This document shows, piece after piece, positions 18,491-29,078 of a DNA stretch of 64,000 nucleotides. How positions within the stretch are numbered: the stretch's first letter is position 1; every line of letters begins with the position of its first letter. The DNA is from a virus (Duplodnaviria; Heunggongvirae; Uroviricota; Caudoviricetes): positions 64,001 to 128,000 of the IMG/VR virus record IMGVR_UViG_3300005512_000002; one strand, 5' to 3'. The notes beneath the pieces were generated by a model, which worked only from the letters and a program-made list of their open reading frames with translations, was not told where the DNA came from and made no database searches. The position numbers and the translations under genes are program-made.

Positions 18491-18541
18491 GAGCGAATTG
18501 CCAAATCAAGAGGCTGAAGCGCCATTCCCCGGAGGTTGAAG

Positions 18542-18614
18542 CTCCAGCGACAGGGGTCGAACCTGTAACCTGCCGGTTAACAGCCGGCTGCTCCACCGAT
18601 TGAGCTACGCTGGA
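18542..18614 (-). tRNA. tRNA-Asn(GTT)
   Basis: Cloverleaf: TCCAGCG/CGCTGGA acceptor, loop CTGTTAA, G73. Confidence 0.95.
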
Positions 18615-18625
18615 AAGTAAAAGTA

Positions 18626-18646
18626 GCCCGCCGATCACCGGCGGGC
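18626..18646 (-). terminator. GC hairpin followed by TACTTTT, possible terminator or processing stem
   Basis: GCCCGCCG/CGGCGGGC 8-bp stem. Confidence 0.4.
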
Positions 18647-18722
18647 CGATAGAAGCTGGGTTCCGTTCTCCTCGGGGTCCAGCGTTTGACGGAGCGCTGG
18701 GCCTCTTGGGTACGGGAGAAAG

Positions 18723-18795
18723 CTGGCCCGGCTGGATTTGAACCAGCAACCTCCTGGTCCAAAGCCAGGCGCTCTGCCGCTTGAGCTACGGGCCC
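18723..18795 (-). tRNA. tRNA-Gln(TTG)
   Basis: CCTGG-CTTTGGA-CCAGG arm; A72, G73; G1:A72 mismatch. Confidence 0.9.
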
Positions 18796-19277
18796 TTGAT
18801 TTCGGGCAGCGGGGTCGGATTGAACGCAACAGTCTCAGCCTCGACCGTGTGGTGGGTGCACACCACCGGAATGGTATGCTCCAGGCCCAGGTGCCGCAGG
18901 GCCTTGCTGAACAGCTTGGCCACTTTCTTGTAGGTCTTCTTCTCGCGCACCGGGAAGTGGTCGTTGCCCACCTTCACGTGCAGCACCTGCGGGCACTGGC
19001 CGGCCCCGGGGGCGCTGAGCAGTCGGGCGGTGGCCTGCAGGACCTGCTCGGCCCCGGCGGTGCGATTGGGCCACTTCCAGACGCACGGCCTGTCGGGGTC
19101 CTGGGCCAGGCTGATGCTGGTCAGGTCCTCGTTCGGTTGGTCACAGCCGTCGCTGAACACGTGCAGATTGACGCAGGTGTCGGACCAGACGCGGGTGATG
19201 ATGGCCGCCGCCGGCTCGCTGTCCGGCTGGGGGAAGTAGTGGACGATCCGTCCCACACTCGGCTTGGGCTGAGGCAT
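18786..19277 (-). CDS. Hypothetical phage protein (~163 aa)
   Basis: N-terminal PSVGRIVHY...AAIITRV...VNLHVF motif common in small phage proteins; stop lies in tRNA-Gln. Confidence 0.7.
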   Translation of the reverse strand: MPQPKPSVGRIVHYFPQPDSEPAAAIITRVWSDTCVNLHVFSDGCDQPNEDLTSISLAQDPDRPCVWKWPNRTAGAEQVLQATARLLSAPGAGQCPQVLHVKVGNDHFPVREKKTYKKVAKLFSKALRHLGLEHTIPVVCTHHTVEAETVAFNPTPLPEIKGP

Positions 19278-19278
19278 G

Positions 19279-19995
19279 TCAAACTCCTGGTACGTTCGCA
19301 GGGTTGCACCCAGACGCATCAACGTACAACGCGATGCGTTCGGGTACGCCGTAGATCTCGAAGCAGTGCACGCACAGGGCGGCGACGATGCGCACCCGAT
19401 CCAGGGCGCAGGTATCGCCCGGCAGGCGATCCCATCCGACCATCACCCGGCCCCCCACCGTCGCGGCGCCGGTCGGACTGTCCGTGGCCAGCCGGTTCTG
19501 GCACCAGGCGAAGTCGGCCTGCCACAGGTAATGCCGCAGCAAGGTGGCGAAGTCGTTAATGGTCTTTTTGCCACCGGGCCGGCTGGTGATGCGATTCGGC
19601 GGTAGGTCGCGCTGATACTCGCGTTCCTCCAGGACCACGTCCCACACGTCGTCGAAGCTCATGGGTAACCGTCCGCCCGCTTCATTCAGCCGCGTGCTGA
19701 ACGCGACGGGATGGTCTTGGCGTCGGGGCACCCCGAAGTGCATCAGGCAGGTGATGGCCAGATTGGCCACCTTGCGCATGGGATCGAGGGCGGCGTCCTT
19801 GCCGTTCACGTCGATGCAGGCTTCGCTGACCTGCCGCACGTAGCAGTCCATATAGGTCAGCCAGTCGCCCACGGATTTCTGGCTGTCGGGCACCCGGTCG
19901 GTGGCCCCGGCTCGCTGGGCCCGCCCGGGCCAATCACCGCTGGCGTACTCGTGCTCGGTCAGGATGATCTGCTTGATGGCGTCGCGGTCCATCAT
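19279..19995 (-). CDS. Protein with two tandem MazG/all-alpha NTP-pyrophosphohydrolase-like units
   Basis: Duplicated pattern (E..Y...W...DWLTY...ALDPMRKVANLAITC / E..YQ...NDFATL...ALDRVRIVAALCVHC); family call is inference. Confidence 0.5.
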   Translation of the reverse strand: MMDRDAIKQIILTEHEYASGDWPGRAQRAGATDRVPDSQKSVGDWLTYMDCYVRQVSEACIDVNGKDAALDPMRKVANLAITCLMHFGVPRRQDHPVAFSTRLNEAGGRLPMSFDDVWDVVLEEREYQRDLPPNRITSRPGGKKTINDFATLLRHYLWQADFAWCQNRLATDSPTGAATVGGRVMVGWDRLPGDTCALDRVRIVAALCVHCFEIYGVPERIALYVDASGCNPANVPGV

Positions 19996-20078
19996 GGTGT
20001 GCTCCAGATCCGGCGTCGGCGTGACGCGGGTCTGGTTCTGGTCGGCCTGCCCGGGGCCCGACTTGAGTTCCTGGTGAA

Positions 20079-20112
20079 CTTCCGGGGGAACTTCCGGGGG
20101 AACTTCCGGGGG
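20079..20112. repeat. Three tandem 12-bp CTTCCGGGGGAA units
   Basis: Direct reading; 3' trailer of tRNA-Glu(TTC). Confidence 0.95.
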
Positions 20113-20115
20113 TAA

Positions 20116-20191
20116 TGACCTGGACCGGAATCGAACCGGCGACCTCCGGGTTGAAAGCCCGGTGATGCGAGCCAACCGCATCTGCCAGGTC
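20116..20191 (-). tRNA. tRNA-Glu(TTC), atypical D arm
   Basis: GACCTGG/CCAGGTC acceptor, loop CTTTCAA; C8 and extended GATGCG/CGCATC D stem. Confidence 0.8.
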
Positions 20192-20264
20192 CAGGCCGGG
20201 CCGACGGCCCGGCATTTGAGATTGGAAATCTCAAATCTGAGATGCACCCCGCAGGGGTGCCAAG

Positions 20265-20350
20265 TGCGCCCGGGAGGAGTCGAACCTCCAAAGTCCGATG
20301 GACGGCTGCTTTACAGGCAGTTGACCTCAGCCACATGGTCGTGCGGACGC
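20265..20350 (-). tRNA. tRNA-Tyr(GTA)
   Basis: Loop CTGTAAA, long variable arm, A73; 3-nt CAC linker before D stem. Confidence 0.85.
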
Positions 20351-20368
20351 AGAGAATAAAAAGGCAAG

Positions 20369-20456
20369 CGGAAGGCGGAGGACTTGAACCCCTAGCCCTT
20401 GCAGGCTTCACCGGTTTTCGAGACCGGGGCCGCGCCCGGTGGCGACATCACCTTCC
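20369..20456 (-). tRNA. tRNA-Ser(CGA), 8/4 fold
   Basis: GGAAGGTG/CGCCTTCC 8-bp acceptor, GGGG/CCTC 4-bp T stem, loop CTCGAAA, long variable arm, G73. Confidence 0.85.
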
Positions 20457-20668
20457 GAATCGTAAAGCATCTGGTACTCGTACTGGCTCAAGGTCCCCGG
20501 TGGTAGATCGGCCACAGCCAGAATTGCTTCGCATATCCGTCGTCGCACGGTCAGTGTGCGTTCGATCATAAACCGGCAGTGCAGGGCCAGGACCAGGTCG
20601 ATCGGCTCACCGTGGGCCATGGCCAGGATCTCAGGCACATTGGATGGCAAGGCGAAGGCGAAGGTCAT
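20408..20668 (-). CDS. Hypothetical protein (86 aa)
   Basis: ATGA overlap with upstream gene; 3' end runs into tRNA-Ser(CGA). Confidence 0.5.
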   Translation of the reverse strand: MTFAFALPSNVPEILAMAHGEPIDLVLALHCRFMIERTLTVRRRICEAILAVADLPPGTLSQYEYQMLYDSEGDVATGRGPGLENR

Positions 20669-20907
20669 GACATAGGTGGTATCGGGATCTGCCCGAAGTC
20701 GTCATTGCTCAAACAGTCTTCAAGCATTCGCCGCATCACGCATGATTGCTCAATCTGCGATAGCAGCAGGGCCAAGGTCTCGGCATCCATGATCTCAGCC
20801 AGGCCCATCGTTCGGCACTGGCGAATCAGCAGGTCCACGATCACCCGCTTGCCTTGCGGGGTGCTGGCCCGGCTGATCCAGTTGTCCCACTGCTTCTTGC
20901 GGTCCAT
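20665..20907 (-). CDS. Hypothetical protein (80 aa)
   Basis: Protein-like composition; ATGA overlap with next gene. Confidence 0.6.
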   Translation of the reverse strand: MDRKKQWDNWISRASTPQGKRVIVDLLIRQCRTMGLAEIMDAETLALLLSQIEQSCVMRRMLEDCLSNDDFGQIPIPPMS

Positions 20908-21151
20908 GTTCAGCCTCGCAGGTTTGGCAGACCAGCTTATCCAGCTTGCCGCGCACGGTCAGCATGCCGGTCGGTTCCCAGTGCACCCGCAACTCGCGGA
21001 TGATGTACGGGCCCTGTTGTTCATGAAAGTCGCGTGCCTTGATGACCATGTTGAGAATAGCCTGTAGGCCGCGCTCCGGTTCGTCATGGACAACGCTCGC
21101 GGGTATGCCGCAGTCGATGTTTTCCGGGACTTCAATCCGTTTCAGACTCAT
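20795..21151 (-). CDS. Hypothetical protein (118 aa)
   Basis: ATGA overlap with thermonuclease stop; 3' 113 nt overlap the next ORF. Confidence 0.5.
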   Translation of the reverse strand: MSLKRIEVPENIDCGIPASVVHDEPERGLQAILNMVIKARDFHEQQGPYIIRELRVHWEPTGMLTVRGKLDKLVCQTCEAEHGPQEAVGQLDQPGQHPARQAGDRGPADSPVPNDGPG

Positions 21152-21615
21152 GGTTTTCTCGCTGGCTCCTGGCGGAACTGGTCTTGGGCCTGCTCGAACC
21201 GGGCGGTGTACTTGCCCGTGCCGTACTTGGTCCAGAACTCACTGTGGCCCAGTCTCACCATCTCGACGTTGACATTGCGGCCCCGGGCCCAGACGTAGGC
21301 CAGCAGGCGTCCGAAGTAATCACGGGTTGGCGCGCCGTCGGATTCCGGGGGCTCGAACTCCAGAACCACCGGCTGGTCACCGATCAGGTACTTGAGGGTC
21401 TGGGTCGCTTCGGTGTAGCCCGGCTCCCCTTTCTCGGGGGTGTCGATCCGCAGCAGCCGGACGTATTCCAGCTTGCCCTGGTAAAGCACACGGATGGTGT
21501 CCCCATCGACCACCTTGACCACCGGGTACGTGGGCCGGGGCGTGGGACTGGCCGCACACCCGACCGGCAGCACCCCCGCAAGCAAGAACAACGGCAGGAG
21601 CAGGGCTTTACGCAT
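21148..21615 (-). CDS. Thermonuclease (SNase-family) lipoprotein
   Basis: VVDGDT, VRLLRIDTPE and DYFGRLLAYV motifs; signal peptide ending LPVGC. Confidence 0.92.
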   Translation of the reverse strand: MRKALLLPLFLLAGVLPVGCAASPTPRPTYPVVKVVDGDTIRVLYQGKLEYVRLLRIDTPEKGEPGYTEATQTLKYLIGDQPVVLEFEPPESDGAPTRDYFGRLLAYVWARGRNVNVEMVRLGHSEFWTKYGTGKYTARFEQAQDQFRQEPARKP

Positions 21616-21651
21616 ACTGATGGTATCGGCCCCGGGACGTTGGCGCTTGAG

Positions 21652-21685
21652 CTTCCGGGGGAGCTTCCGGGGGAACTTCCGGGGG
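21652..21685. repeat. Three tandem 12-bp CTTCCGGGGG-containing units
   Basis: Direct reading; between tRNA-Ser(GCT) 3' end and SNase start. Confidence 0.95.
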
Positions 21686-21689
21686 AAAG

Positions 21690-21778
21690 CGGAAGACGGT
21701 GGACTTGAACCACAGACGCCATATGGCGCCCCACCCGGTTAGCAGCCGGGGCCGCACCCAGTGCGCGATTCATCTTCC
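21690..21778 (-). tRNA. tRNA-Ser(GCT), 8/4 fold
   Basis: GGAAGATG/CGTCTTCC 8-bp acceptor, GTGG/CCAC 4-bp T stem, loop CTGCTAA, G73. Confidence 0.88.
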
Positions 21779-22110
21779 GGAGAGGTTGGTTGGACCCAGC
21801 GGCGGACACTGATGATCACGCCCTCGGTGGCCAGCATGGCAACGATCGGAATCTCGTCGGTCAGCAGATCCAGCCAGATATACAAATGGCCAAGCTGTTT
21901 GTGTTCTGCCATGGCGAACTGCATGGCTCTCACTGCTGTTCGCAGACTGCGGCCACACCGCCAGGTGGGCACGATGATCCGGGTGGCGGTGGCCATCACC
22001 TGGGGGATCACGCCCACGTCCGGGCAGACCAGGGCCGGTGAGGATTGATCCACCAGAACCTCCAGGTTGTGACCGAACTCACTGTAATCGAAGTGGCTGA
22101 GTCGAATCAT
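21739..22110 (-). CDS. Hypothetical protein (123 aa)
   Basis: GGAG SD; stop lies in the tRNA-Ser(GCT) anticodon loop. Confidence 0.55.
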   Translation of the reverse strand: MIRLSHFDYSEFGHNLEVLVDQSSPALVCPDVGVIPQVMATATRIIVPTWRCGRSLRTAVRAMQFAMAEHKQLGHLYIWLDLLTDEIPIVAMLATEGVIISVRRWVQPTSPEDESRTGCGPGC

Positions 22111-22139
22111 TGCTTTTCTCCAACACCCAAGCAGGGCAA

Positions 22140-22211
22140 AGGGCGGAGCGGGAGTCGAACCCGCGTGATCGGGGTTGCAATCCGATACCTTGGCCGTTCG
22201 GTCATCCGCCC
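22140..22211 (-). tRNA. tRNA-Cys(GCA)
   Basis: Anticodon GCA, U73, 4-nt variable loop. Confidence 0.92.
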
Positions 22212-22531
22212 GAATCGAGTGTGTCGATGCCGCCGAGCAGATCCTGCTCGGTCCACGTGCCCTCCATGGTCATTAGGCCGTACTTTTCAAAGTGCAGTTT
22301 CAATCCCTGCCAGACCTCCTCTACGCCTTGTGATTCGGCGATGGGGTGCCGGTAGCTGAGGAAAAAGCCCGGCAAGGACGTGTAGCACTTGACCGCTGTG
22401 ACCAGCACGGATCTGCCCGTGTCGCCGTCGCGGACAACCGCCATTTTGACGAAGGTAATGCCCACCGCGAGACCCAGTTCGATGAACCGGGCCGGGTCCG
22501 TAAGGCGGTACGGGATGGTGTCCATGCTCAT
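22202..22531 (-). CDS. Hypothetical protein (~109 aa)
   Basis: Start MSMDTIPY by ATGA overlap; stop at tRNA-Cys nt 8-10. Confidence 0.6.
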   Translation of the reverse strand: MSMDTIPYRLTDPARFIELGLAVGITFVKMAVVRDGDTGRSVLVTAVKCYTSLPGFFLSYRHPIAESQGVEEVWQGLKLHFEKYGLMTMEGTWTEQDLLGGIDTLDSGG

Positions 22532-22677
22532 GGTTCCCACGCCTGGCTGACCAGGCGGCTGACCCACAGGGTGAACACCACAATGCTCACCGCCCCACCG
22601 ATGCAGGCCGCCACAATCAGGGGCACCAGCCAGTCGTGCACGGGTGTGCGATACTTGTCGTCAGGCGTGTCGGTCAT
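22528..22677 (-). CDS. Small single-pass membrane protein (49 aa)
   Basis: WLVPLIVAACIGGAVSIVVFTLW hydrophobic segment. Confidence 0.55.
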   Translation of the reverse strand: MTDTPDDKYRTPVHDWLVPLIVAACIGGAVSIVVFTLWVSRLVSQAWEP

Positions 22678-22679
22678 AA

Positions 22680-22752
22680 CTGGCCTCTCAGGATTTGAAC
22701 CTGAAACCTTCCGGTCCAGAGCCGGACGCTCTACCAATTGAGCTACAGGCCA
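22680..22752 (-). tRNA. tRNA-Gln(CTG)
   Basis: U1-A72, loop CTCTGGA, G73. Confidence 0.92.
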
Positions 22753-22765
22753 AAGGGTACCACAA

Positions 22766-22837
22766 TGCGACAGACGGGACTCGAACCCGTGGCCTCCACG
22801 TTGGCAACGTGGCGTTCTGCCACTGAACTACTGTCGC
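22766..22837 (-). tRNA. tRNA-Gly(GCC)
   Basis: Loop TTGCCAA; A73. Confidence 0.93.
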
Positions 22838-22840
22838 CCC

Positions 22841-22876
22841 CGGAAGCTGGCCCGTCGCAAGGCGGGCAGCTTCGGA
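22841..22876. terminator. Hairpin after macro-domain gene, built on the CGGAAG motif
   Basis: cggaagctggcccg...cgggcagcttcgg imperfect inverted repeat; no clear U tract. Confidence 0.4.
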
Positions 22877-23314
22877 TTATTCCATCATCACGATCGTCAC
22901 CCGGTCACCCAGGATAGGCACCAGCAACAGTTCGACATCGCCCCAGGCCAGTCCGCCGTTGGAGCAGCCGGGAGCCGGTAGTATCACGTCCCACACCCGA
23001 TGCTCCTCGATCGCCTGGACTAGACGGTTGGCGCTGTTCACGATAAGTTGCGGGTCCGACGCCTCTCGCCAACGATGCTTGGTGGGAAAGGTGAACAATC
23101 GTTCAGGGGGTAGCAGGTGTACCACGTTGCCGTACTCCCGCACCAGTCGTCCCAGTCTGGCAGCGATGCCGGGATACCGATCGCGGGCCTGTTTGGCGAC
23201 GCCGGCCCCCATGACCAGTTCGCCATTGATCTTGACCACCCCGTTGGTGGTGATCCCCCGCCAACAACCGTCGAAGCGGGGGTCCCACAGGTCCAGGTTG
23301 CGATAGACGTGCAT
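22877..23314 (-). CDS. Macro-domain (ADP-ribose processing) protein
   Basis: TTNG...MGAGVAKQARDRYP, FPTKHRW and PAPGCSNGGLAW motifs. Confidence 0.88.
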   Translation of the reverse strand: MHVYRNLDLWDPRFDGCWRGITTNGVVKINGELVMGAGVAKQARDRYPGIAARLGRLVREYGNVVHLLPPERLFTFPTKHRWREASDPQLIVNSANRLVQAIEEHRVWDVILPAPGCSNGGLAWGDVELLLVPILGDRVTIVMME

Positions 23315-23343
23315 GGTTTAAGCCTCCCTGCCTATTATCGTAA

Positions 23344-23417
23344 CACGTCCACGAGGACTTGAACCTCGAACCTGCGGCTTTGGAGACCGCCGCTCTGCCA
23401 GTTTGAGCTATGGACGT
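23344..23417 (-). tRNA. tRNA-Trp(CCA)
   Basis: Loop CTCCAAA, G73. Confidence 0.93.
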
Positions 23418-23481
23418 AAAGTCGTCAACCGAACCGGCCGATGAAAACCGGTGAACCTCCAAGGGTTCCGTTGTTCATCGA

Positions 23482-23518
23482 CCCCGCCAGGCCCATCCCG
23501 CCCGGCGGGGTTTTTCTT
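23482..23518 (+). terminator. Intrinsic terminator oriented for antisense (+ strand) transcripts
   Basis: CCCCGCCAGGC/GCCCGGCGGGG stem followed by TTTTTCTT. Confidence 0.55.
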
Positions 23519-23524
23519 GAAGCA

Positions 23525-23597
23525 AGCCGCCAGCCGGCCACGATCCGGCAACCTCCGCTTTACGGGAGCGGCGCTCTGCCTCTTGAGCTACGGCGGC
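23525..23597 (-). tRNA. tRNA-Thr(CGT), C33 and A54 variant
   Basis: G1-C72/C2-G71, loop CCCGTAA, T loop ATCGTGG. Confidence 0.82.
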
Positions 23598-23600
23598 GAA

Positions 23601-23673
23601 TACCCCCGGCAGGAGTCGAACCTGCACCTTACGGGTTAAAAGCCCGCTACTCTGCCAATCGAGTTACGGGGGT
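23601..23673 (-). tRNA. tRNA-Lys(TTT)
   Basis: Loop CTTTTAA, A73. Confidence 0.93.
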
Positions 23674-23679
23674 GTGAAG

Positions 23680-23752
23680 TGCCACCGGCAGGAGTTGAAC
23701 CTGCAACGTCCCGATTAAGAGCCGGGTGCTCTGCCAGTTGAGCTACGATGGC
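23680..23752 (-). tRNA. tRNA-Lys(CTT)
   Basis: Loop CTCTTAA, A73. Confidence 0.93.
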
Positions 23753-23753
23753 G

Positions 23754-23830
23754 TGGTGCGCCGGACGGGCCACGATCCCGCAACTTCCAGCTTGGAAGGC
23801 TGGCACTCTGCCCACTTGAGTTACCGGCGC
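23754..23830 (-). tRNA. tRNA-Gly(TCC) with encoded CCA
   Basis: Loop CTTCCAA, T loop ATCGTGG, ends ACCA. Confidence 0.88.
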
Positions 23831-23840
23831 AAAAGAAGAA

Positions 23841-24041
23841 CTACAGCGGGTACCCGTCGTCCTGCACGGCTTGCCAATATCGGCCGGCGTGCTCGATCTC
23901 TGCGATCTGCACCCACAGGCGCCTGAAGGGCCAGACCCGCCGCAAGACCTGGTAGTGTGTGGGACCCATGTTGATGTACGGCGAACGCATGGGGTCGAAG
24001 CTCCAGGCCAGCAGCCACCATTTCCATTTGAACGGACTCAT
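23841..24041 (-). CDS. Hypothetical protein (66 aa)
   Basis: ATGA overlap with upstream gene. Confidence 0.55.
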   Translation of the reverse strand: MSPFKWKWWLLAWSFDPMRSPYINMGPTHYQVLRRVWPFRRLWVQIAEIEHAGRYWQAVQDDGYPL

Positions 24042-24319
24042 AGTTTGGCCGCCCGCTGCTGATCGTCACGCTCCGTCTGGGTCATGCCCCGGGGATTGCC
24101 GAACGGGATGAACTCGTAGTCGAACCAGTCGCAGGTCTGCATGTCCCGGTCCATGGCCTGGCGGCACACCAGGTGCATTTTGTCGCGCTGGAAGTCCCCG
24201 TCGCAGATCCCGCTGGCGAAATGGTACACCTCACCCGGCTCGATGGTCTGGCCGCACCAGGTGCAGCGGTGCGGCTTGCGGGCCTTGGACTGGCGCTGGT
24301 CCAGCAGCACGTAGCTCAC
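24038..24319 (-). CDS. Small putative Zn-binding phage protein
   Basis: GTG start; KARKPHRCTWCGQTIEPGEVY...HLVC motif. Confidence 0.7.
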   Translation of the reverse strand: MSYVLLDQRQSKARKPHRCTWCGQTIEPGEVYHFASGICDGDFQRDKMHLVCRQAMDRDMQTCDWFDYEFIPFGNPRGMTQTERDDQQRAAKL

Positions 24320-24639
24320 GGGTACGGTTCCTTCCACGGCTCGTTGCGCGGGTGCATGATGCACTTGACCACGTCGTCGTCCACGATCACGCGCGGGCTC
24401 TGCACACCCCAGAGAATCCCGTCGTGGGGAATGTCGTGCTCGCGGAGGGTGCGGGCGGTGACGGTCTCGCTGTACTTGGGGTGTTTGGCCCCCCACTCCT
24501 CGTTGCTGCGCCGGGTGATCAGGATCACCTCGTGGCCTTCGGCTTTCAGGTGCTTGAGCCAGGCGATCGCCCCTTCCAGCGGCTCCTGGGTCGAGTGTTT
24601 GAGAATGGTCCCGTCCAGGTCGATGAAGTAGGTGGCCAT
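24316..24639 (-). CDS. HAD-superfamily phosphatase
   Basis: FIDLDGT motif I, ITRR motif II, VIVDDD motif IV. Confidence 0.85.
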   Translation of the reverse strand: MATYFIDLDGTILKHSTQEPLEGAIAWLKHLKAEGHEVILITRRSNEEWGAKHPKYSETVTARTLREHDIPHDGILWGVQSPRVIVDDDVVKCIMHPRNEPWKEPYP

Positions 24640-24675
24640 GCGGCCTGTATCGGCCAGGCCCGGGGGCAAGTTAAA

Positions 24676-24749
24676 TCAGACTGAGTGGATTTGAACCACC
24701 GACCTCCTGGTCCCGAACCAGGCGCTCTGCCAAGCTGAGCTACAGTCTG
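24676..24749 (-). tRNA. tRNA-Pro(CGG)
   Basis: C1-G72, loop TTCGGGA, A73. Confidence 0.95.
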
Positions 24750-24824
24750 TGGGGTGACCGACGGGATTTGAACCCGCGACCGCAGGCTCACAACCTGCTG
24801 TGTTGCCCCTACACCACGGTCACC
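24750..24824 (-). tRNA. tRNA-His(GTG) with G-1 and encoded CCA
   Basis: G-1:C73, loop TTGTGAG, ends CCA. Confidence 0.93.
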
Positions 24825-24833
24825 ATCTGAAAG

Positions 24834-24906
24834 TCAGGCTGGCCGGACTCGAACCGGCGACTTCCCGGCCCCAAACCGGGTGCTCTGCCAACTGAGCTAC
24901 AGCCTG
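24834..24906 (-). tRNA. tRNA-Pro(TGG)
   Basis: C1-G72, loop TTTGGGG, A73. Confidence 0.94.
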
Positions 24907-24974
24907 TGTCCCGCTCCCGCGTAACGGCCGCGACGAAGGCGCGCCTGCCGGCGCAGCCGTTACGCTGGAAACGG

Positions 24975-25583
24975 TCACTCCTGCAATTCCACCGACCAGT
25001 ACGCCTCGTCAACGAACTGGCTCCAGGTCTTCATCCGCTCACGGGGCACCTTGACCGCCACCTTCAGCGGCTGTGGTGGCCGGATCAGCTTCATGCCCGC
25101 TTGTTCGGGCGTGCGGTCGTTCTTGCGCGAGTTGCACTGGATACAACTGCACACGATGTTGTCCCACCGGCTCTTGCCGCCCTGGCTGCGCGGCAGCACG
25201 TGGTCCAGGTTGAGCCGGCTGGTGGGCAGTGTCCGGCCGCAATACTGGCAGGTGTTCTGGTCGCGGGCGTAGACGTTGCGGCGGTTGAACCGGATGCGCC
25301 GCCGCTTGAGCTTGTCGTACTTGAGCAGTCTGACCACGGTGGGGATCAGGATCTTCTGCTTGACCGCCTGTACGAAGACGAACTTCTCGGGCTCGAACCG
25401 CTCGCGGTGCTCGCTAAGCTCAGCCCAGGACTCGAAGTCGTGGCAGGCGTAGTCGCCTTCGGCGTCGATGGCCTCGGCCACGCCCCGCACCATCATGCTC
25501 AAGGCGTCGGCTGCCGTGGCCACCCGCAGGGCGGCCCAGTGCCGGTTGAGCACCATCACCGGCTGGTCGAGAACGAGTTCCAT
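24975..25583 (-). CDS. HNH endonuclease (McrA-like)
   Basis: RDQNTCQYCG...LDHVLPRSQGG...CIQCNSRKNDRTP. Confidence 0.92.
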   Translation of the reverse strand: MELVLDQPVMVLNRHWAALRVATAADALSMMVRGVAEAIDAEGDYACHDFESWAELSEHRERFEPEKFVFVQAVKQKILIPTVVRLLKYDKLKRRRIRFNRRNVYARDQNTCQYCGRTLPTSRLNLDHVLPRSQGGKSRWDNIVCSCIQCNSRKNDRTPEQAGMKLIRPPQPLKVAVKVPRERMKTWSQFVDEAYWSVELQE

Positions 25584-25606
25584 CGGACACCTCACTTTCA
25601 CAACAG

Positions 25607-25680
25607 TGGAGCCAGTGGGATTTGAACCCACGACCTTCTGCGTGCCACGCAGACGCTCTCCCAGGCTGAGCTATGGCCCC
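25607..25680 (-). tRNA. tRNA-Ala(GGC)
   Basis: G3:U70, loop GTGGCAC, A73. Confidence 0.93.
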
Positions 25681-25883
25681 ATGTCAACAGGTTTGTACTG
25701 GGTCTGGCGCGTGGTCTTCCAGCCCCGGCCCCGGTTGGCCTTGGGGATGTCGTCCCAGGCGTCGGGCAGTTGCCGGGGCCGCCGTTTGCCCCGCACGCGG
25801 TACGGGACGGTCTGGTAGTCCTGGTTGGCCCGCTTTTCCTGGGTGGATCGCGGGCGACGGTAGTACAGCTTGAACCACTGCAT
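25671..25883 (-). CDS. Small basic phage protein (70 aa)
   Basis: AGGAG SD; YRRPRSTQEKR...LPDAWDDI...WK...QY motif; stop at tRNA-Ala nt 8-10. Confidence 0.75.
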   Translation of the reverse strand: MQWFKLYYRRPRSTQEKRANQDYQTVPYRVRGKRRPRQLPDAWDDIPKANRGRGWKTTRQTQYKPVDMGP

Positions 25884-25909
25884 GGTGATCTCCTAAGCGC
25901 GGCATGCGC

Positions 25910-25942
25910 CTAAAAGACCGTGCTACGGAATCGTGTCACCAT
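25910..25942 (-). CDS. Candidate 10-aa leader peptide MVTRFRSTVF
   Basis: AAGGAGG 6 nt before ATG, downstream of a promoter-like motif; too short to verify. Confidence 0.3.
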   Translation of the reverse strand: MVTRFRSTVF

Positions 25943-25962
25943 GATCCGCCTCCTTTCCTGAT

Positions 25963-25993
25963 GATGTTACGGCTACCGGAAGCCTTGATTCAC
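25963..25993 (-). promoter_or_regulatory. GTGAATC-N13-GCCGTAACATC promoter-like motif
   Basis: Same -35-like block and spacing as the copies at 30927 and 55980. Confidence 0.6.
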
Positions 25994-26023
25994 GCCCGGC
26001 TAACTTCCGGGGGCGGGGGAAAG

Positions 26024-26096
26024 TGGACCCGGAGGGGATCGAACCCTCAACCTCCTGCGTGCAAAGCAGGTGCTCTCCCAGTTGCGCTACGAGCCC
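26024..26096 (-). tRNA. tRNA-Ala(TGC)
   Basis: G3:U70, loop TTTGCAC. Confidence 0.94.
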
Positions 26097-26107
26097 ATGA
26101 AAACCAA

Positions 26108-26192
26108 TGTCGTCGGAGGGAGTCGAACCCTCAGCGCCCTTACGGGCACCAGCACCTCAAGCTGGCGTGTTTGCCAATTTCACCACGACGAC
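26108..26192 (-). tRNA. tRNA-Leu(GAG)
   Basis: Loop TTGAGGT, long variable arm, A73. Confidence 0.93.
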
Positions 26193-26203
26193 AAAACGTC
26201 AAG

Positions 26204-26278
26204 TAGCCCCGGGTGGAGTCGAACCACCAAGCGGCTGAGTTTGAGTCAGCCAGGTTTGCCAGTTTCCGTCACGGGGCC
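26204..26278 (-). tRNA. tRNA-Leu(CAA) lacking the long variable arm
   Basis: GCTGA-CTCAAAC-TCAGC, 5-nt variable region, Leu-type D loop, A73. Confidence 0.8.
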
Positions 26279-26348
26279 CCCGGAAGTTTTCCCATGGCAT
26301 TTGCTGATCCACTGGAAAACTTCCAGTATTTCGACACAGACAGTCAAG

Positions 26349-26435
26349 TACCCACGGCAGGAGTCGAACCTGCAGAGCCCCTCACGGGGCACCTGGACCT
26401 GAGCCAGGCGCGTCTGCCAATTCCGCCACGTGGGC
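26349..26435 (-). tRNA. tRNA-Leu(CAG)
   Basis: Loop CTCAGGT, long variable arm. Confidence 0.94.
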
Positions 26436-26449
26436 ACATGGTAGCAAAG

Positions 26450-26523
26450 TCGGGCTGAGTGGATTTGAACCACCGACCTCGTGACCCCCAGTCACGCGCG
26501 CTGCCAAGCTGCGCTACAGCCCG
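26450..26523 (-). tRNA. tRNA-Pro(GGG)
   Basis: C1-G72, loop CTGGGGG. Confidence 0.94.
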
Positions 26524-27107
26524 TCCCCGGAAGTGGCCGAAGCCACCTGTTCATTGCTTTCGACACCGAGTAATCGGTAGCTCAGATTCCGTCCTACCGC
26601 TCCGAGCACCCGCCGGCCCTCGCCGGGCAGCAGGCAGGCGTGGGCCTTGACCGGGCGCAGGCTTTCGGGCATCCAGCCGTGCGGCTTGACCAGCACGACG
26701 CCCCAGTATCTGGGCAGGCCGCGTTCGGCCAGCCAGGTCACCAGCTTGCGACGCTCGTCGCGGCTCCGCAGGGCCGCCGGCGAGTCGAACCAGATCTCGG
26801 TGTTGAGTGCCAGGTAGCAGTGGGTGGCCACCTGGCTGTAGCCGTGCATCTTGCGGGCCCGCAGGTCTGCCAGCAGGTCGCTGCGGGAAGTCTTGCACTC
26901 GACCACGCAGATCTTGTCGTGCTCGCCCAGCTTCACACCCAGGGCGTCCATCTGGATGCCCTTCCAGTGGTAATGAATCCGGCCGTTCCAGCCACAACGG
27001 TAGGGCTCGCCGCGCACCTGCATGCCGACCTCGTAGCTGACCAGGTCCATCTTGACCCGGTGCAGCAGCCAGGTAGCCATGGCCTTGCACATCGCCCGGT
27101 GGTCCAT
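26514..27107 (-). CDS. MmcB-like PD-(D/E)XK nuclease-fold protein
   Basis: MDALG...VVECKTSRSDLLAD...K...Y...ATHCYLA and LPRYWGVV motifs. Confidence 0.7.
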   Translation of the reverse strand: MDHRAMCKAMATWLLHRVKMDLVSYEVGMQVRGEPYRCGWNGRIHYHWKGIQMDALGVKLGEHDKICVVECKTSRSDLLADLRARKMHGYSQVATHCYLALNTEIWFDSPAALRSRDERRKLVTWLAERGLPRYWGVVLVKPHGWMPESLRPVKAHACLLPGEGRRVLGAVGRNLSYRLLGVESNEQVASATSGDGL

Positions 27108-27128
27108 GGTCTGGCTATCGGCCCAAAG

Positions 27129-27201
27129 CGTACCCGGCTGGAGTCGAACCGGCAGCCTCGACCTTCGGAGGGTCGCGCTCTTCCTGTTGAGCTACGGGTA
27201 C
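27129..27201 (-). tRNA. tRNA-Arg(CCG)
   Basis: Loop CTCCGAA, A20, G73. Confidence 0.94.
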
Positions 27202-27236
27202 CCCCGGAAGCCGCCCTGTGGCAACTTCCAGGCAAG

Positions 27237-27310
27237 TACGGCCGGCAGGGATCGAACCTGCATACCTGCGGGATAGAAGCCCGCCGCTCGTCCGGTTGAG
27301 CTACGGCCGC
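27237..27310 (-). tRNA. tRNA-Arg(TCT)
   Basis: Loop CTTCTAT, A20. Confidence 0.92.
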
Positions 27311-27315
27311 ATGAA

Positions 27316-27468
27316 GAAAAACCACCGGCGTTCTGCCAGTTAAACTACCAATACGTTCGTGCTGACCCTCGGGTCGATGGCCCGGCCGATCTTTGGCGCC
27401 TTCGGTCCGGCGGGAACCACCACACACACGTATCAGGCGGGACTCGAACCCGCACTACCGGTGTTTTC
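27316..27468 (-). ncRNA. Circularly permuted tRNA-like element B
   Basis: 3' half ACCGG-TAGT-GCGGG TTCGAGT CCCGC-CTGATAC (27462-27430) precedes 5' half GTATTGG-TA-GTTT AACTGGCA GAAC-G-CCGGT (27354-27324); all four stems pair; 74-nt insert closes the acceptor stem. Confidence 0.8.
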
Positions 27469-27471
27469 AAG

Positions 27472-27546
27472 GCGGGTATCCTGCCGATTGGACGACCACC
27501 CCCGGGTGGGGGCGGGCGGGACTCGAACCCGCATCACCCGCGTAAG
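27472..27546 (-). ncRNA. Circularly permuted tRNA-like element A
   Basis: GCGGG-TGAT-GCGGG TTCGAGT CCCGC-CCGCCCCC, ACCC loop, GGGGGTGG-TC-GTCC AATCGGCA GGAT-A-CCCGC; all stems pair. Confidence 0.82.
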
Positions 27547-27619
27547 CGACCCCCGCAGGACTTGAACCTGCAGCCTCCTGGTTCGTAGCCAGGCGCTCTG
27601 TCCTTTGAGCTAGAGGGTC
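27547..27619 (-). tRNA. tRNA-Arg(ACG)
   Basis: Loop CTACGAA, A20, G73. Confidence 0.94.
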
Positions 27620-27629
27620 GAAGATCAAG

Positions 27630-27702
27630 GGCCACCGACAGGCGTCGAACCTGCAACCTGAGCTTTACAGGAGCCCTGCTCTGCCAGTTGAGCTACGGTG
27701 GC
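27630..27702 (-). tRNA. tRNA-Thr(TGT), C33 variant
   Basis: G1-C72/C2-G71; GGGCT-CCTGTAA-AGCTC; C73. Confidence 0.8.
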
Positions 27703-27711
27703 GATGGATGT

Positions 27712-28002
27712 CTACTTGCCGGCCATGTATCCCAGGCCGGTGGCCGCACCCTTGGCGGCGGTCTCGATGATCTCCTTCAAGGGCCCGGGCCCCTCCCGCA
27801 CGTAGTCGGGGATGAGCAGCCCGGTGGCTGGCTCGAAGCGGTACAGGGCCGCCAGGTTGGGTCCGCCCAGCGTGGTGTCGCGCACCACGTACAGGTCGGT
27901 CTTACCCAAGGTGCCAATTTTGACCATTTGCGGGCCACAGCCGGCCGTAACCAGCCAGAAAAGAACACTTACGATCGCAATGAGCCGATGGCGTGTGGAC
28001 AT
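27712..28002 (-). CDS. Small lipoprotein (~96 aa)
   Basis: MSTRHRLIAIVSVLFWLVTAGC signal with lipobox; GGAG SD. Confidence 0.75.
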   Translation of the reverse strand: MSTRHRLIAIVSVLFWLVTAGCGPQMVKIGTLGKTDLYVVRDTTLGGPNLAALYRFEPATGLLIPDYVREGPGPLKEIIETAAKGAATGLGYMAGK

Positions 28003-28025
28003 GGCTTTCTCCTGCTCCGGGGCTA

Positions 28026-28047
28026 CTTCCGGGGCTACTTCCGGGGG
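28026..28047. repeat. Two tandem CTTCCGGGG units
   Basis: cttccgggg-cta-cttccggggg in the tRNA-Asp trailer. Confidence 0.9.
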
Positions 28048-28051
28048 CAAG

Positions 28052-28124
28052 CGGTCATGACGGGACTCGAACCCGCAACCTCCGGATCGACAATCCGACG
28101 CTCCGCCAATTGAGCTACATGACC
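28052..28124 (-). tRNA. tRNA-Asp(GTC)
   Basis: Loop TTGTCGA, G73. Confidence 0.92.
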
Positions 28125-28188
28125 GTATCGGCCCCCGGCCCCCGGAAAATTAGTCCGAGGGCTAAAGGGCTCTTAACTTCCGTGGAAA

Positions 28189-28261
28189 AGTCGCCGGCGG
28201 GTGTCGAACCCGCAACCTCGCCCTTACCAAGGGCGTGTTCTGCCGGTTGAACTACGGCGAC
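28189..28261 (-). tRNA. tRNA-Thr(GGT)
   Basis: Loop TTGGTAA. Confidence 0.9.
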
Positions 28262-28329
28262 ACGGCTGCAGCCGCCAGGGGTCGCCTGACGGCTGCGGAA
28301 CGGTTTGGACGCATGGCCCATCCGCAAAG

Positions 28330-28401
28330 TGCGCCCGAGTGGACTCGAACCACCGACTACCCGGTTATCAGCCGGGTGCTCTGCCACTGAGCTACGAGCG
28401 C
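28330..28401 (-). tRNA. tRNA-Ile(GAT)
   Basis: Loop CTGATAA, A73. Confidence 0.95.
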
Positions 28402-28465
28402 TTGGTAAAAACTGGCCCGGCCCCGGGCGAGAACCCGGGGCGCAGGCCAGTAGACTTGCCTCTTA

Positions 28466-28481
28466 CAATTCGCTCTTGACT
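28466..28481 (+). repeat. Exact inverted 16-bp copy of 18485-18500 (CAATTCGCTCTTGACT)
   Basis: Reverse complement of agtcaagagcgaattg at 18485. Confidence 0.85.
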
Positions 28482-28565
28482 TGTCAAAGCCCCCGGAAGG
28501 TCGAGCCGGGGTGCCCACGCCCTCGGCCGTGGCCTGCCACGACTCTGAGCGGGGACTCTCGCAAG

Positions 28566-28638
28566 TGGCCCAGGCCGGGTTTGAACCGGCGCGACCCTGT
28601 TCTTCAGACAGGTGCTCTACCAACTGAGCTACCGGGCC
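28566..28638 (-). tRNA. tRNA-Phe(GAA)
   Basis: Loop CTGAAGA, A73. Confidence 0.93.
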
Positions 28639-28653
28639 AGGATGTCGGTCAAG

Positions 28654-28727
28654 TGGGCGGTGCGGGACTCGAACCTGCGGCCTCCTCGGTGTGAACGAGG
28701 CGCTCTGGCCAACTGAGCTAACCGCCC
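28654..28727 (-). tRNA. tRNA-Val(CAC)
   Basis: Loop TTCACAC, A73. Confidence 0.93.
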
Positions 28728-28758
28728 CCCGGAAGTTGTCTTCCGGGCATACGGGCAA

Positions 28759-28832
28759 TGGCGGTGGCAGGATTTGAACCTGCGATCTCCGGGTTATGGG
28801 CCCAGCGGGGACGGCCGCTCCCCTACACCGCT
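28759..28832 (-). tRNA. Initiator-type tRNA-Met(CAT), C33 variant
   Basis: A1:C72 mismatch, three consecutive G-C pairs closing the anticodon stem, loop CCCATAA. Confidence 0.85.
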
Positions 28833-28838
28833 AACAAG

Positions 28839-28911
28839 TGACGATGGCAGGCGTCGAACCTGCAACCTGCGGGTTATGACCCCGCTGCTCTGCCAGTTGA
28901 GCTACATCGCC
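28839..28911 (-). tRNA. tRNA with CAT anticodon (elongator Met or Ile2, not resolved)
   Basis: GCGGG-GTCATAA-CCCGC, paired 1-72, A73. Confidence 0.85.
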
Positions 28912-28928
28912 AGCATGCGTTCTCCAAG

Positions 28929-29002
28929 TGGCCCCGACAGGACTCGAACCTGTGGCCCCCTGCTTGTCGAGCAGGTGCTCTGGCCAACTGAGCTACGGGA
29001 CC
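28929..29002 (-). tRNA. tRNA-Val(GAC), C33 variant
   Basis: CCTGC-TCGACAA-GCAGG, A73. Confidence 0.87.
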
Positions 29003-29007
29003 GTCAA

Positions 29008-29078
29008 TGACCCCAACCGGATTTGAACCGGTGTCTCCGGGCTGAGAACCCGGCATCGTGCCGCTGGACCATGGGGTC
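29008..29078 (-). tRNA. tRNA-Glu(CTC)
   Basis: CCGGG-TTCTCAG-CCCGG, 4-nt variable loop. Confidence 0.92.

Follow-up and report, generated by a model that had tools for sequence, protein, structure and literature searches.

The window analyzed here is a stretch of 64,000 nt (positions 64,001 to 128,000) from the Caudoviricetes record IMGVR_UViG_3300005512_000002, which is 193,655 bp long, has 65% G+C and is estimated to be 97% complete. The record has 36 tRNA genes, all on the minus strand at window positions 18541-29078, which together cover all 20 amino acids and are packed 0-13 nt apart. At one place, between tRNA-Arg(ACG) and tRNA-Arg(UCU), the two neighboring genes are separated by 235 nt in which no tRNA is called and which only spurious ORFs overlap. 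This interval holds two tRNA-like modules, A and B, in tandem and co-directional with the tightly packed tRNA operon around them (Table 1). Upstream of the modules lie tRNA-Arg, tRNA-Thr and an ORF of 112 aa that matches nothing in Pfam or PHROG. This lipoprotein-like protein and a PD-(D/E)xK-like protein of 197 aa are encoded by the flanking ORFs, and neither has an informative family match. Several ORFs in the block abut tRNAs.

Other features of the tRNA block can be noted in passing. Genes of nuclease or phosphatase type are scattered through it (21148-21615, 22877-23314, 24975-25631 and 26514-27107, all minus), with products that include an SNase-like protein (Pfam, 2.4e-10), an HNH endonuclease, a macro-domain-like phosphatase (1.3e-22 to phrog_335, with the Pfam Macro match falling below its cut-off) and the 197-aa protein, whose VECK motif suggests a PD-(D/E)xK nuclease. 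For tRNA-Glu(UUC) and both tRNA-Ser genes (20117-20191, 20370-20456 and 21691-21778, minus), the best Rfam model is tRNA-Sec, at 36-42 bits and below threshold; in the case of the Ser tRNAs, this match fits the unusual acceptor/T-stem geometry noted earlier.

Table 1. Features of the interval between the two tRNA-Arg genes, in window coordinates and in order along the minus strand.
Feature	Position	Strand	Basis or comment
tRNA-Arg(ACG)	27546-27619	minus	tRNA call
Whole non-coding stretch, tRNA-Arg(ACG) to tRNA-Arg(UCU), 235 nt	27311-27545	minus	presumed ~235-nt RNA freed by flanking tRNA maturation
Module A, permuted tRNA-like domain	27472-27541	minus	MFE fold, strict scan, ARAGORN on re-ordered halves
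A closing-stem 3' strand	27541-27537	minus	
A variable loop	27536-27533	minus	
A T arm	27532-27516	minus	
A acceptor 3' strand	27515-27508	minus	
A ACCC loop	27507-27504	minus	
A acceptor 5' strand	27503-27496	minus	
A UC linker	27495-27494	minus	
A D arm	27493-27478	minus	
A26 of module A	27477	minus	
A closing-stem 5' strand	27476-27472	minus	
Linker CUUGAAAA between modules	27464-27471	minus	last four A form the outer part of B's basal helix
Module B, permuted tRNA-like domain	27323-27463	minus	folds, strict scan, ARAGORN on re-ordered halves
B closing-stem 3' strand CACCGG	27463-27458	minus	
B variable loop	27457-27454	minus	
B T arm	27453-27437	minus	
B acceptor 3' strand	27436-27430	minus	
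B G73-like nucleotide	27429	minus	
74-nt insert in B acceptor arm	27355-27428	minus	genome-unique; folding energy not different from shuffles
B acceptor 5' strand	27354-27348	minus	
B UA linker	27347-27346	minus	
B D arm	27345-27330	minus	
G26 of module B	27329	minus	
B closing-stem 5' strand CCGGUG	27328-27323	minus	
Tail, GGUUUUUCUUCAU-type U run after B	27311-27322	minus	bulged G and UUUU pairing with 27467-27464
tRNA-Arg(UCU)	27236-27310	minus	tRNA call

The initial annotation of this DNA had described two adjacent elements, each with the 3' half of a tRNA placed ahead of the 5' half, and both the sequence and the folds agree with that description. In each module, the closing-stem 3' strand is followed by a 4-nt variable loop, the T arm, the acceptor 3' strand and a cap, and then by the acceptor 5' strand, two linker nucleotides, the D arm, one further nucleotide and the closing-stem 5' strand. 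The closing stem is thus made of the two anticodon-stem strands, with the 3' strand coming first and the 5' strand last. Module A reads GCGGG / UGAU / GCGGG-UUCGAGU-CCCGC / CCGCCCCC / ACCC / GGGGGUGG / UC / GUCC-AAUCGGCA-GGAU / A / CCCGC; its acceptor is an 8-bp helix, and the closure of this helix by a 4-nt ACCC loop, as annotated, is seen in both sequence and fold. Module B reads CACCGG / UAGU / the same T arm as A / CUGAUAC / G / a 74-nt insert / GUAUUGG, followed by UA / GUUU-AACUGGCA-GAAC / G / CCGGUG. The T arm GCGGG-UUCGAGU-CCCGC is indeed identical in the two modules, as had been stated, and the bulged helix said to prolong B's anticodon stem is also present, with AAAA paired to UUUU around a bulged G and a U run beyond. 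The acceptor of B has 7 bp, or 9 bp with the first and last 2 nt of the insert, and encloses the 74 nt that had been annotated as a structured cap. The insert itself stands; that it is structured is unproven, with a stability relative to shuffled sequences of z = -0.19. Its sequence occurs once in the genome, so it cannot be one more copy of the dispersed repeat that this genome carries.

Both modules keep the nucleotides of the tRNA elbow, namely U8, A14, G18-G19, A21, the A15:U48 Levitt pair and the T loop UUCGA, and the variable loop of each ends in a pyrimidine. An anticodon loop is missing from both, which leaves the RNA unable to decode, and module A cannot be charged as transcribed. A local hairpin, ACUGGC/GCCGGU at 27324-27340 (minus), competes with the D arm and closing stem of module B. 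With the U run that follows, this hairpin makes a terminator-like site that is mutually exclusive with the fold of module B.

We asked whether such an arrangement could have arisen by chance. The MFE fold of module A is the permuted cloverleaf, at -38.7 kcal/mol. The folding-energy z-scores are modest (-2.1 for A and -1.5 for B) and the DNA is G+C-rich, so the specific geometry was tested instead. A strict scan that required a 5-bp T stem, a 7-bp acceptor, a 4-bp D stem, a 5-bp closing stem and tRNA spacing found exactly two sites in the 193,655-bp genome, A and B, as compared with 2 matches in 200 Markov-shuffled genomes, or 0.01 per genome. When the halves of each module were re-ordered around a borrowed 7-nt loop, ARAGORN called both A and B as perfect 72-nt cloverleaf tRNAs; it made no call for the A5'+B3' and B5'+A3' chimeras. 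The modules have in common a 19-nt identical stretch at the T arm. Elsewhere, both partners of a base pair have changed together in six places (the acceptor has three such compensatory changes, the closing stem two and the D stem one), and the approximately 45 base pairs contain no mismatch. The observation of two tandem back-to-front tRNA look-alikes is confirmed as real.

The closest architectural counterpart is YrlA, which mimics a tRNA in circularly permuted form and has its acceptor closed (PMC4201824). Conserved features of the YrlA tRNA-like domain are D- and T-loop nucleotides, the terminal pyrimidine of the variable loop, a UA linker and the Levitt pair, and its T and D stems are conserved as well, possibly for an unknown factor (10.1101/312249). 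The identical T arms of A and B amid diverged stems echo this conservation of the YrlA T and D stems (10.1101/312249). A Y-RNA-like, non-decoding mimic was one of the two identities that the initial annotation had put forward. The architecture, the elbow nucleotides and the recurrence of the design in other genomes (see below) speak for it, whereas the lack of a Ro60-binding handle, the lack of a TROVE gene and an Rfam score of 24 bits speak against a Y RNA in the full sense. The cmsearch with the Rfam YrlA model that had been proposed as a check gave only a local match to module A (24.3 bits; 27475-27539, model positions 24-84 only), which is below the gathering score of 69 bits and at noise level. 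Plain tandem-tRNA junctions from the same tRNA block score as high as module A, at 23.5-33.4 bits, and we therefore rejected the score as evidence; Chen et al. had warned that the YrlA model scores tandem-tRNA junctions (PMC4201824). A genuine YrlA control from a Planctomycetota genome, by comparison, gave 70.9 and 70.5 bits over the full model, with the handle ACGGCGAAUGC...CUUGUCGCCGU.

The handle motif bound by Ro60/Rsr is GNCGAAN0-1G (PMC4201824), carried on the 5' strand of the basal helix. It is absent upstream of both A and B, and the sole near-match, ACCGAAGG, lies inside B's insert. We also found no bulge-helix-bulge at the module termini: the flanks, which in B are AAAAC and GGUUUUU, are unpaired in the folds. 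The earlier statement that no clear bulge-helix-bulge or Ro-site consensus is visible is in line with both results. Likewise, its finding that the window contains no Ro60/Rsr or RtcB gene holds for the whole 193-kb, 97%-complete phage record, in which neither a TROVE gene nor an RtcB gene was found. The phage RNA is not a member of the YrlA family.

The initial annotation knew of no RNAs of this kind in phages, a view that is superseded by the report in 2014 of YrlA beside Ro60 in phages (PMC4201824) and by Ro60-less copies that we found in several phage tRNA arrays. Relatives were sought by scanning for closely spaced T arms and then checking the pairing explicitly. Handle-less modules, single or tandem, occupy tRNA-array slots of at least six other viral contigs. 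Tandem pairs are found in a Mu-like viral contig (L049:45-188; YrlA scores of 41.3 and 37.5 bits, for the tRNA-like part only), in a phage contig directly after tRNA-Asn and tRNA-Lys (L078:2815-2946) and in a Flavobacteriaceae genome, where the pair lies between an 11-tRNA array and a gene for a 367-aa repair-type Band-7 protein (L087:5378-5516, minus). Single modules sit in the tRNA-array slots of five phage loci (L020, L029, L046, L059 and L081) and upstream of Band-7 genes at three Fretibacterium loci (L090, L110 and L117), with Pfam confirmation of Band-7 for L090 only. At that locus, a single handle-less mimic (L090:4144-4211, plus) immediately precedes a repair-type Band-7 gene of ~370 aa. 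Viral loci totaling 661 kb, with 792 tRNA calls among them, contained 10 modules outside tRNA calls, compared with 0 in reversed-sequence controls, a count that is not an estimate of prevalence because these loci were chosen by their T-arm pattern. TROVE is lacking in four of the five viral records with such modules, one of them 90% complete; in the remaining record, a module that does bear a handle is found about 0.8 kb downstream of a gene for a TROVE protein. In other phages, handle-less modules directly adjoin one another, with no space for a loop.

Many matches to the T-arm-pair pattern proved to be ordinary tRNAs in tandem, tRNA-Ile-like genes with an intron, duplications of att sites or mini tRNA-like hairpins, and were discarded. 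A covariance model of the modules was dropped because MAFFT misaligns the variable acceptor hairpins and because such a model would match tandem tRNAs too. The ORF upstream of the Mu-like pair was ruled out as a shared partner, having no homologue in the phage studied here. Eight near-identical viral contigs carry a tRNA-Ile(UAU)-like gene and then tRNA-Arg(UCU); given the 20-30-nt insertion after its anticodon, the former may be an intron-bearing phage tRNA. Odd tRNA-like elements were also seen in three viral contigs without ordinary tRNAs (L028:2778-2864, minus; L034:9264-9374, minus; L074:1321-1410, plus). One of these is a normal-order tRNA-like element with a 5-nt anticodon loop, and the others are paired acceptor-plus-T-arm minihelices.

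No orthologue of the locus itself was found in the collections searched, which comprised viral and metagenome contigs, cultured phages and host-clade proxies. Using the 197-aa, 112-aa, 2716-aa and 1056-aa proteins as anchors in viral and metagenome contigs, we recovered a sole and distant relative phage, with 38% identity on the 1056-aa protein. This phage (IMGVR_UViG_3300037466_003065; 184,787 bp, estimated 100% complete) has no tRNA gene, which points to the 36-tRNA block as a lineage-specific acquisition. A loop-anchored DNA pattern for the exact RNA matched nothing in metagenome contigs, and blastn against cultured phages and five host-clade proxies matched only the T arms.

Host proxies were picked among 401 Planctomycetota genomes by a decamer that is over-represented in the phage (its signature word), of which one genome has 185 copies and four others have 16-27. 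The genome with 185 copies, which is the best host-clade proxy, has neither TROVE nor RtcB. The four others have RtcB, and one of them has a marginal TROVE match. On the phage side, no RNA ligase, splicing endonuclease or CCA-adding family was seen among the Pfam families of 135 ORFs. The sole Band_7 gene of the phage lies 75 kb from the locus and encodes a 226-aa SPFH protein; it was ruled out as a partner, as it is unrelated to the repair type (E = 0.01). The genuine YrlA control comes from one of the signature-word Planctomycetota (G371), where four YrlA RNAs stand in tandem directly upstream of RtcB (L129:778-1320, plus). The two that scored 70.9 and 70.5 bits exceed the Rfam threshold, and the handle GNCGAANG is present in three of the four; TROVE was not detected in this genome at E <= 0.001.

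To our knowledge, Y RNAs with a tRNA-like domain are known solely in partnership with Ro60. In the phage studied here, the domain is present twice without a handle, no Ro60 gene is found in the phage or in its likely host clade, and handle-less modules of this design are met again in other phage tRNA arrays and next to Band-7 repair genes. These results argue that the tRNA-shaped domain has a function that is independent of Ro60. On balance, we favor a model in which A and B are a functional, handle-less mimic of tRNA shape of the YrlA type that acts without Ro60, and we regard this as likely, with appreciable room for other explanations. The 235 nt would give rise to one non-coding RNA, or two, with two tandem tRNA-shaped domains. 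This RNA would be co-transcribed with the 36-tRNA operon and released by RNase P cleavage at the 5' end of tRNA-Arg(UCU) together with 3' processing of tRNA-Arg(ACG), and its tRNA fold would make it stable. Once free, it would act through tRNA-shape mimicry on a tRNA-binding factor other than Ro60. One possible role is to divert, as a decoy or competitor, some host enzyme by which the tRNA elbow and T arm are recognized; alternatively, the RNA could assist a host RNA-repair machine as its cofactor, a role proposed for YrlA and b7a-tRNA with RtcB and Band-7.

A bolder version of this model, which we put forward as speculative and rather unlikely, is that the handle-less mimics located in the tRNA arrays of phages constitute a class of their own, independent of Ro60 and represented here by a processed two-piece RNA. 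B would be opened by RNase P and receive CCA, A would present a G-1:C73 pair like that of tRNA-His, and the product would serve as a decoy or cofactor in a conflict over tRNAs, either against host nucleases that target tRNAs or on behalf of a host RNA-repair machine, and would do so alongside the complete set of phage tRNAs. Phage tRNA sets are thought to counter tRNA-directed defenses.

Processing of this kind can also be considered on its own, without the wider class. The modules would then be a tRNA mimic in two pieces, comparable to two-piece tmRNA. Cleavage by RNase P would fall at the acceptor 5' strand (on the 5' side of the G at 27354 in module B and, in module A, perhaps at G-1 or G+1), and the upstream piece would be trimmed and given CCA, leaving a nicked and possibly chargeable molecule. 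B has several of the expected parts, with its canonical 7-bp acceptor, its 74-nt removable spacer and its discriminator-like G, and the eighth G:C pair of A sits where tRNA-His has G-1:C73, the pair that sets the identity of that tRNA. RNase P cleaves the YrlA of Mycobacterium smegmatis, whose acceptor has 7 bp, and CCA is added to this RNA in vivo (PMC4201824). However, the acceptor helix of B runs 9 bp into the insert and that of A is closed by a tetraloop, and YrlAs with such closed stems were uncleaved in the work of Chen et al. (PMC4201824). Moreover, no CCA-adding enzyme was seen among the families of 135 phage ORFs. We judge this explanation to be improbable.

We attach similarly little weight to the idea that the modules are non-functional debris of tRNA-gene rearrangement, whether duplicates that lost their outer halves or products of deletions between anticodon loops, with the HNH and other nucleases of the block perhaps promoting the deletions. 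Tandem copies of one tRNA automatically produce a junction at which a 3' half pairs with the following 5' half, as seen at one of the loci we examined (L064), and the Rfam tRNA model reads A5'+B3' as a weak chimeric tRNA (25.5 bits). The HNH, SNase and PD-(D/E)xK-like genes of the block and the lack of any relative that shows conservation would also fit debris. Against this, at least three precise deletions at anticodon stems would be needed, the outer halves are completely gone, and the approximately 45 base pairs have stayed free of mismatches despite the six compensatory double changes between A and B. In addition, 235 nt of junk would be unusual where tRNA genes are packed 0-13 nt apart, and the architecture recurs independently in other phages and bacteria.

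It is doubtful, too, that the modules are solely a cis-acting element of the operon with no role in trans, such as processing punctuation, a 3' stabilizer or, with the U run, a terminator or attenuator. The terminator-like hairpin and U run at 27340-27311 would suit such an element, tRNA-like structures serve as RNase P or RNase Z signals elsewhere (mascRNA, to which there is a weak 17-bit Rfam match), and several ORFs of the block abut tRNAs, as described above. However, the number of terminator-like sites is not significant (2 observed compared with 1.4 expected), and tRNA-Arg(UCU) starts 13 nt past the U run, leaving no space for a new promoter. The real tRNAs on either side already provide processing sites, and two elaborate, full tRNA mimics exceed the needs of punctuation.

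The second identity proposed in the initial annotation was that of permuted tRNAs that need ligation at the anticodon. The transcript ends would be joined there and the acceptor spacer removed, giving decoding tRNAs as in Cyanidioschyzon merolae, which is very improbable here. In its favor, the order of the halves is right, they yield perfect cloverleaves once re-ordered, the 7 nt that follow the 5' half of A (CUUGAAA) resemble an anticodon loop with U33 and A37, and some signature-word Planctomycetota encode RtcB. On the other side, there is no anticodon loop, the flanks form no bulge-helix-bulge, the acceptor spacer of A is just 4 nt long, and the downstream flank of B, GGUUUUU, does not resemble a loop; the adjoining handle-less modules of other phages have no space for one either. 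Neither RtcB nor a splicing endonuclease or RNA ligase was found in the phage, its best host proxy has no RtcB, and 36 normal tRNAs already serve all 20 amino acids.

A comparison with known systems places the handle-less, Ro60-independent mimic that we favor among several families of unusual tRNA-like RNAs. In the permuted tRNA genes of Cyanidioschyzon merolae and Thermofilum, the anticodon loop is split at a bulge-helix-bulge, and a splicing endonuclease and a ligase are needed. The phage locus is like them in encoding the 3' half ahead of the 5' half, and unlike them in having no split anticodon loop, bulge-helix-bulge, endonuclease or ligase. Module B also resembles two-piece (permuted) tmRNA, in which the acceptor 5' strand comes after the T arm and the acceptor 3' strand, beyond a removable spacer. 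However, the phage RNA lacks the tag reading frame and the pseudoknots of a tmRNA, and tmRNA identity was excluded, as the Rfam tmRNA_permuted model scores 12.4 bits against a threshold of 47 bits and ARAGORN finds no tmRNA.

A closer parallel in some respects is b7a-tRNA. Burroughs and Aravind (2016), as quoted in 10.1101/312249, describe under this name tRNA-like RNAs that are paired with Band-7 and RtcB rather than with Ro60, and YrlA is occasionally adjacent to Band-7 as well (10.1101/312249). We found an operon in a Planctomycetota MAG (L124:1-5300) with a divergent RtcR gene, two tandem tRNA-like elements, Band-7, RtcB and RtcA, which is a clear example of the predicted b7a-tRNA system. 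Its Band-7 protein is orthologous to that beside the Flavobacteriaceae tandem pair (E = 1e-68). Like the phage RNA, the tRNA-like RNAs of this operon are tandem and Ro60-independent, and the first copy has the identical T arm, GCGGGUUCGAGUCCCGC. Unlike the phage modules, they have normal order, with 4-5-nt 'anticodon' loops, and lie inside a repair operon, whereas the phage has no repair-type Band-7 gene.

The strongest likeness is to YrlA (RF02553). Both RNAs have the order of T arm, loop-closed acceptor and D arm, with a stem in place of the anticodon arm, and both keep the nucleotides of the tertiary core; B has the full conserved set, and A has UC instead of UA. The T stem GCGGG/CCCGC is the YrlA consensus, and YrlA too occurs in phages and in tandem arrays. 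On the other hand, the D stems of the phage RNA are GUCC/GGAU and GUUU/GAAC rather than the GCUC/GAGC of YrlA. The phage RNA is embedded between real tRNAs and has no Ro60/Rsr basal helix, and the phage has no rsr gene; the YrlA of Mycobacterium smegmatis, by contrast, is bound by Rsr and encoded beside rsr. The kind of RNA is known from YrlA and b7a-tRNA, and what is new here is that it is handle-less, tandem and placed between tRNAs, with a 74-nt insert in the acceptor of one module. These comparisons suggest that phages may use the tRNA-shaped domain together with their own tRNA sets. A small, partner-free RNA of this type also makes the factor that binds the elbow and T arm of YrlA experimentally approachable.
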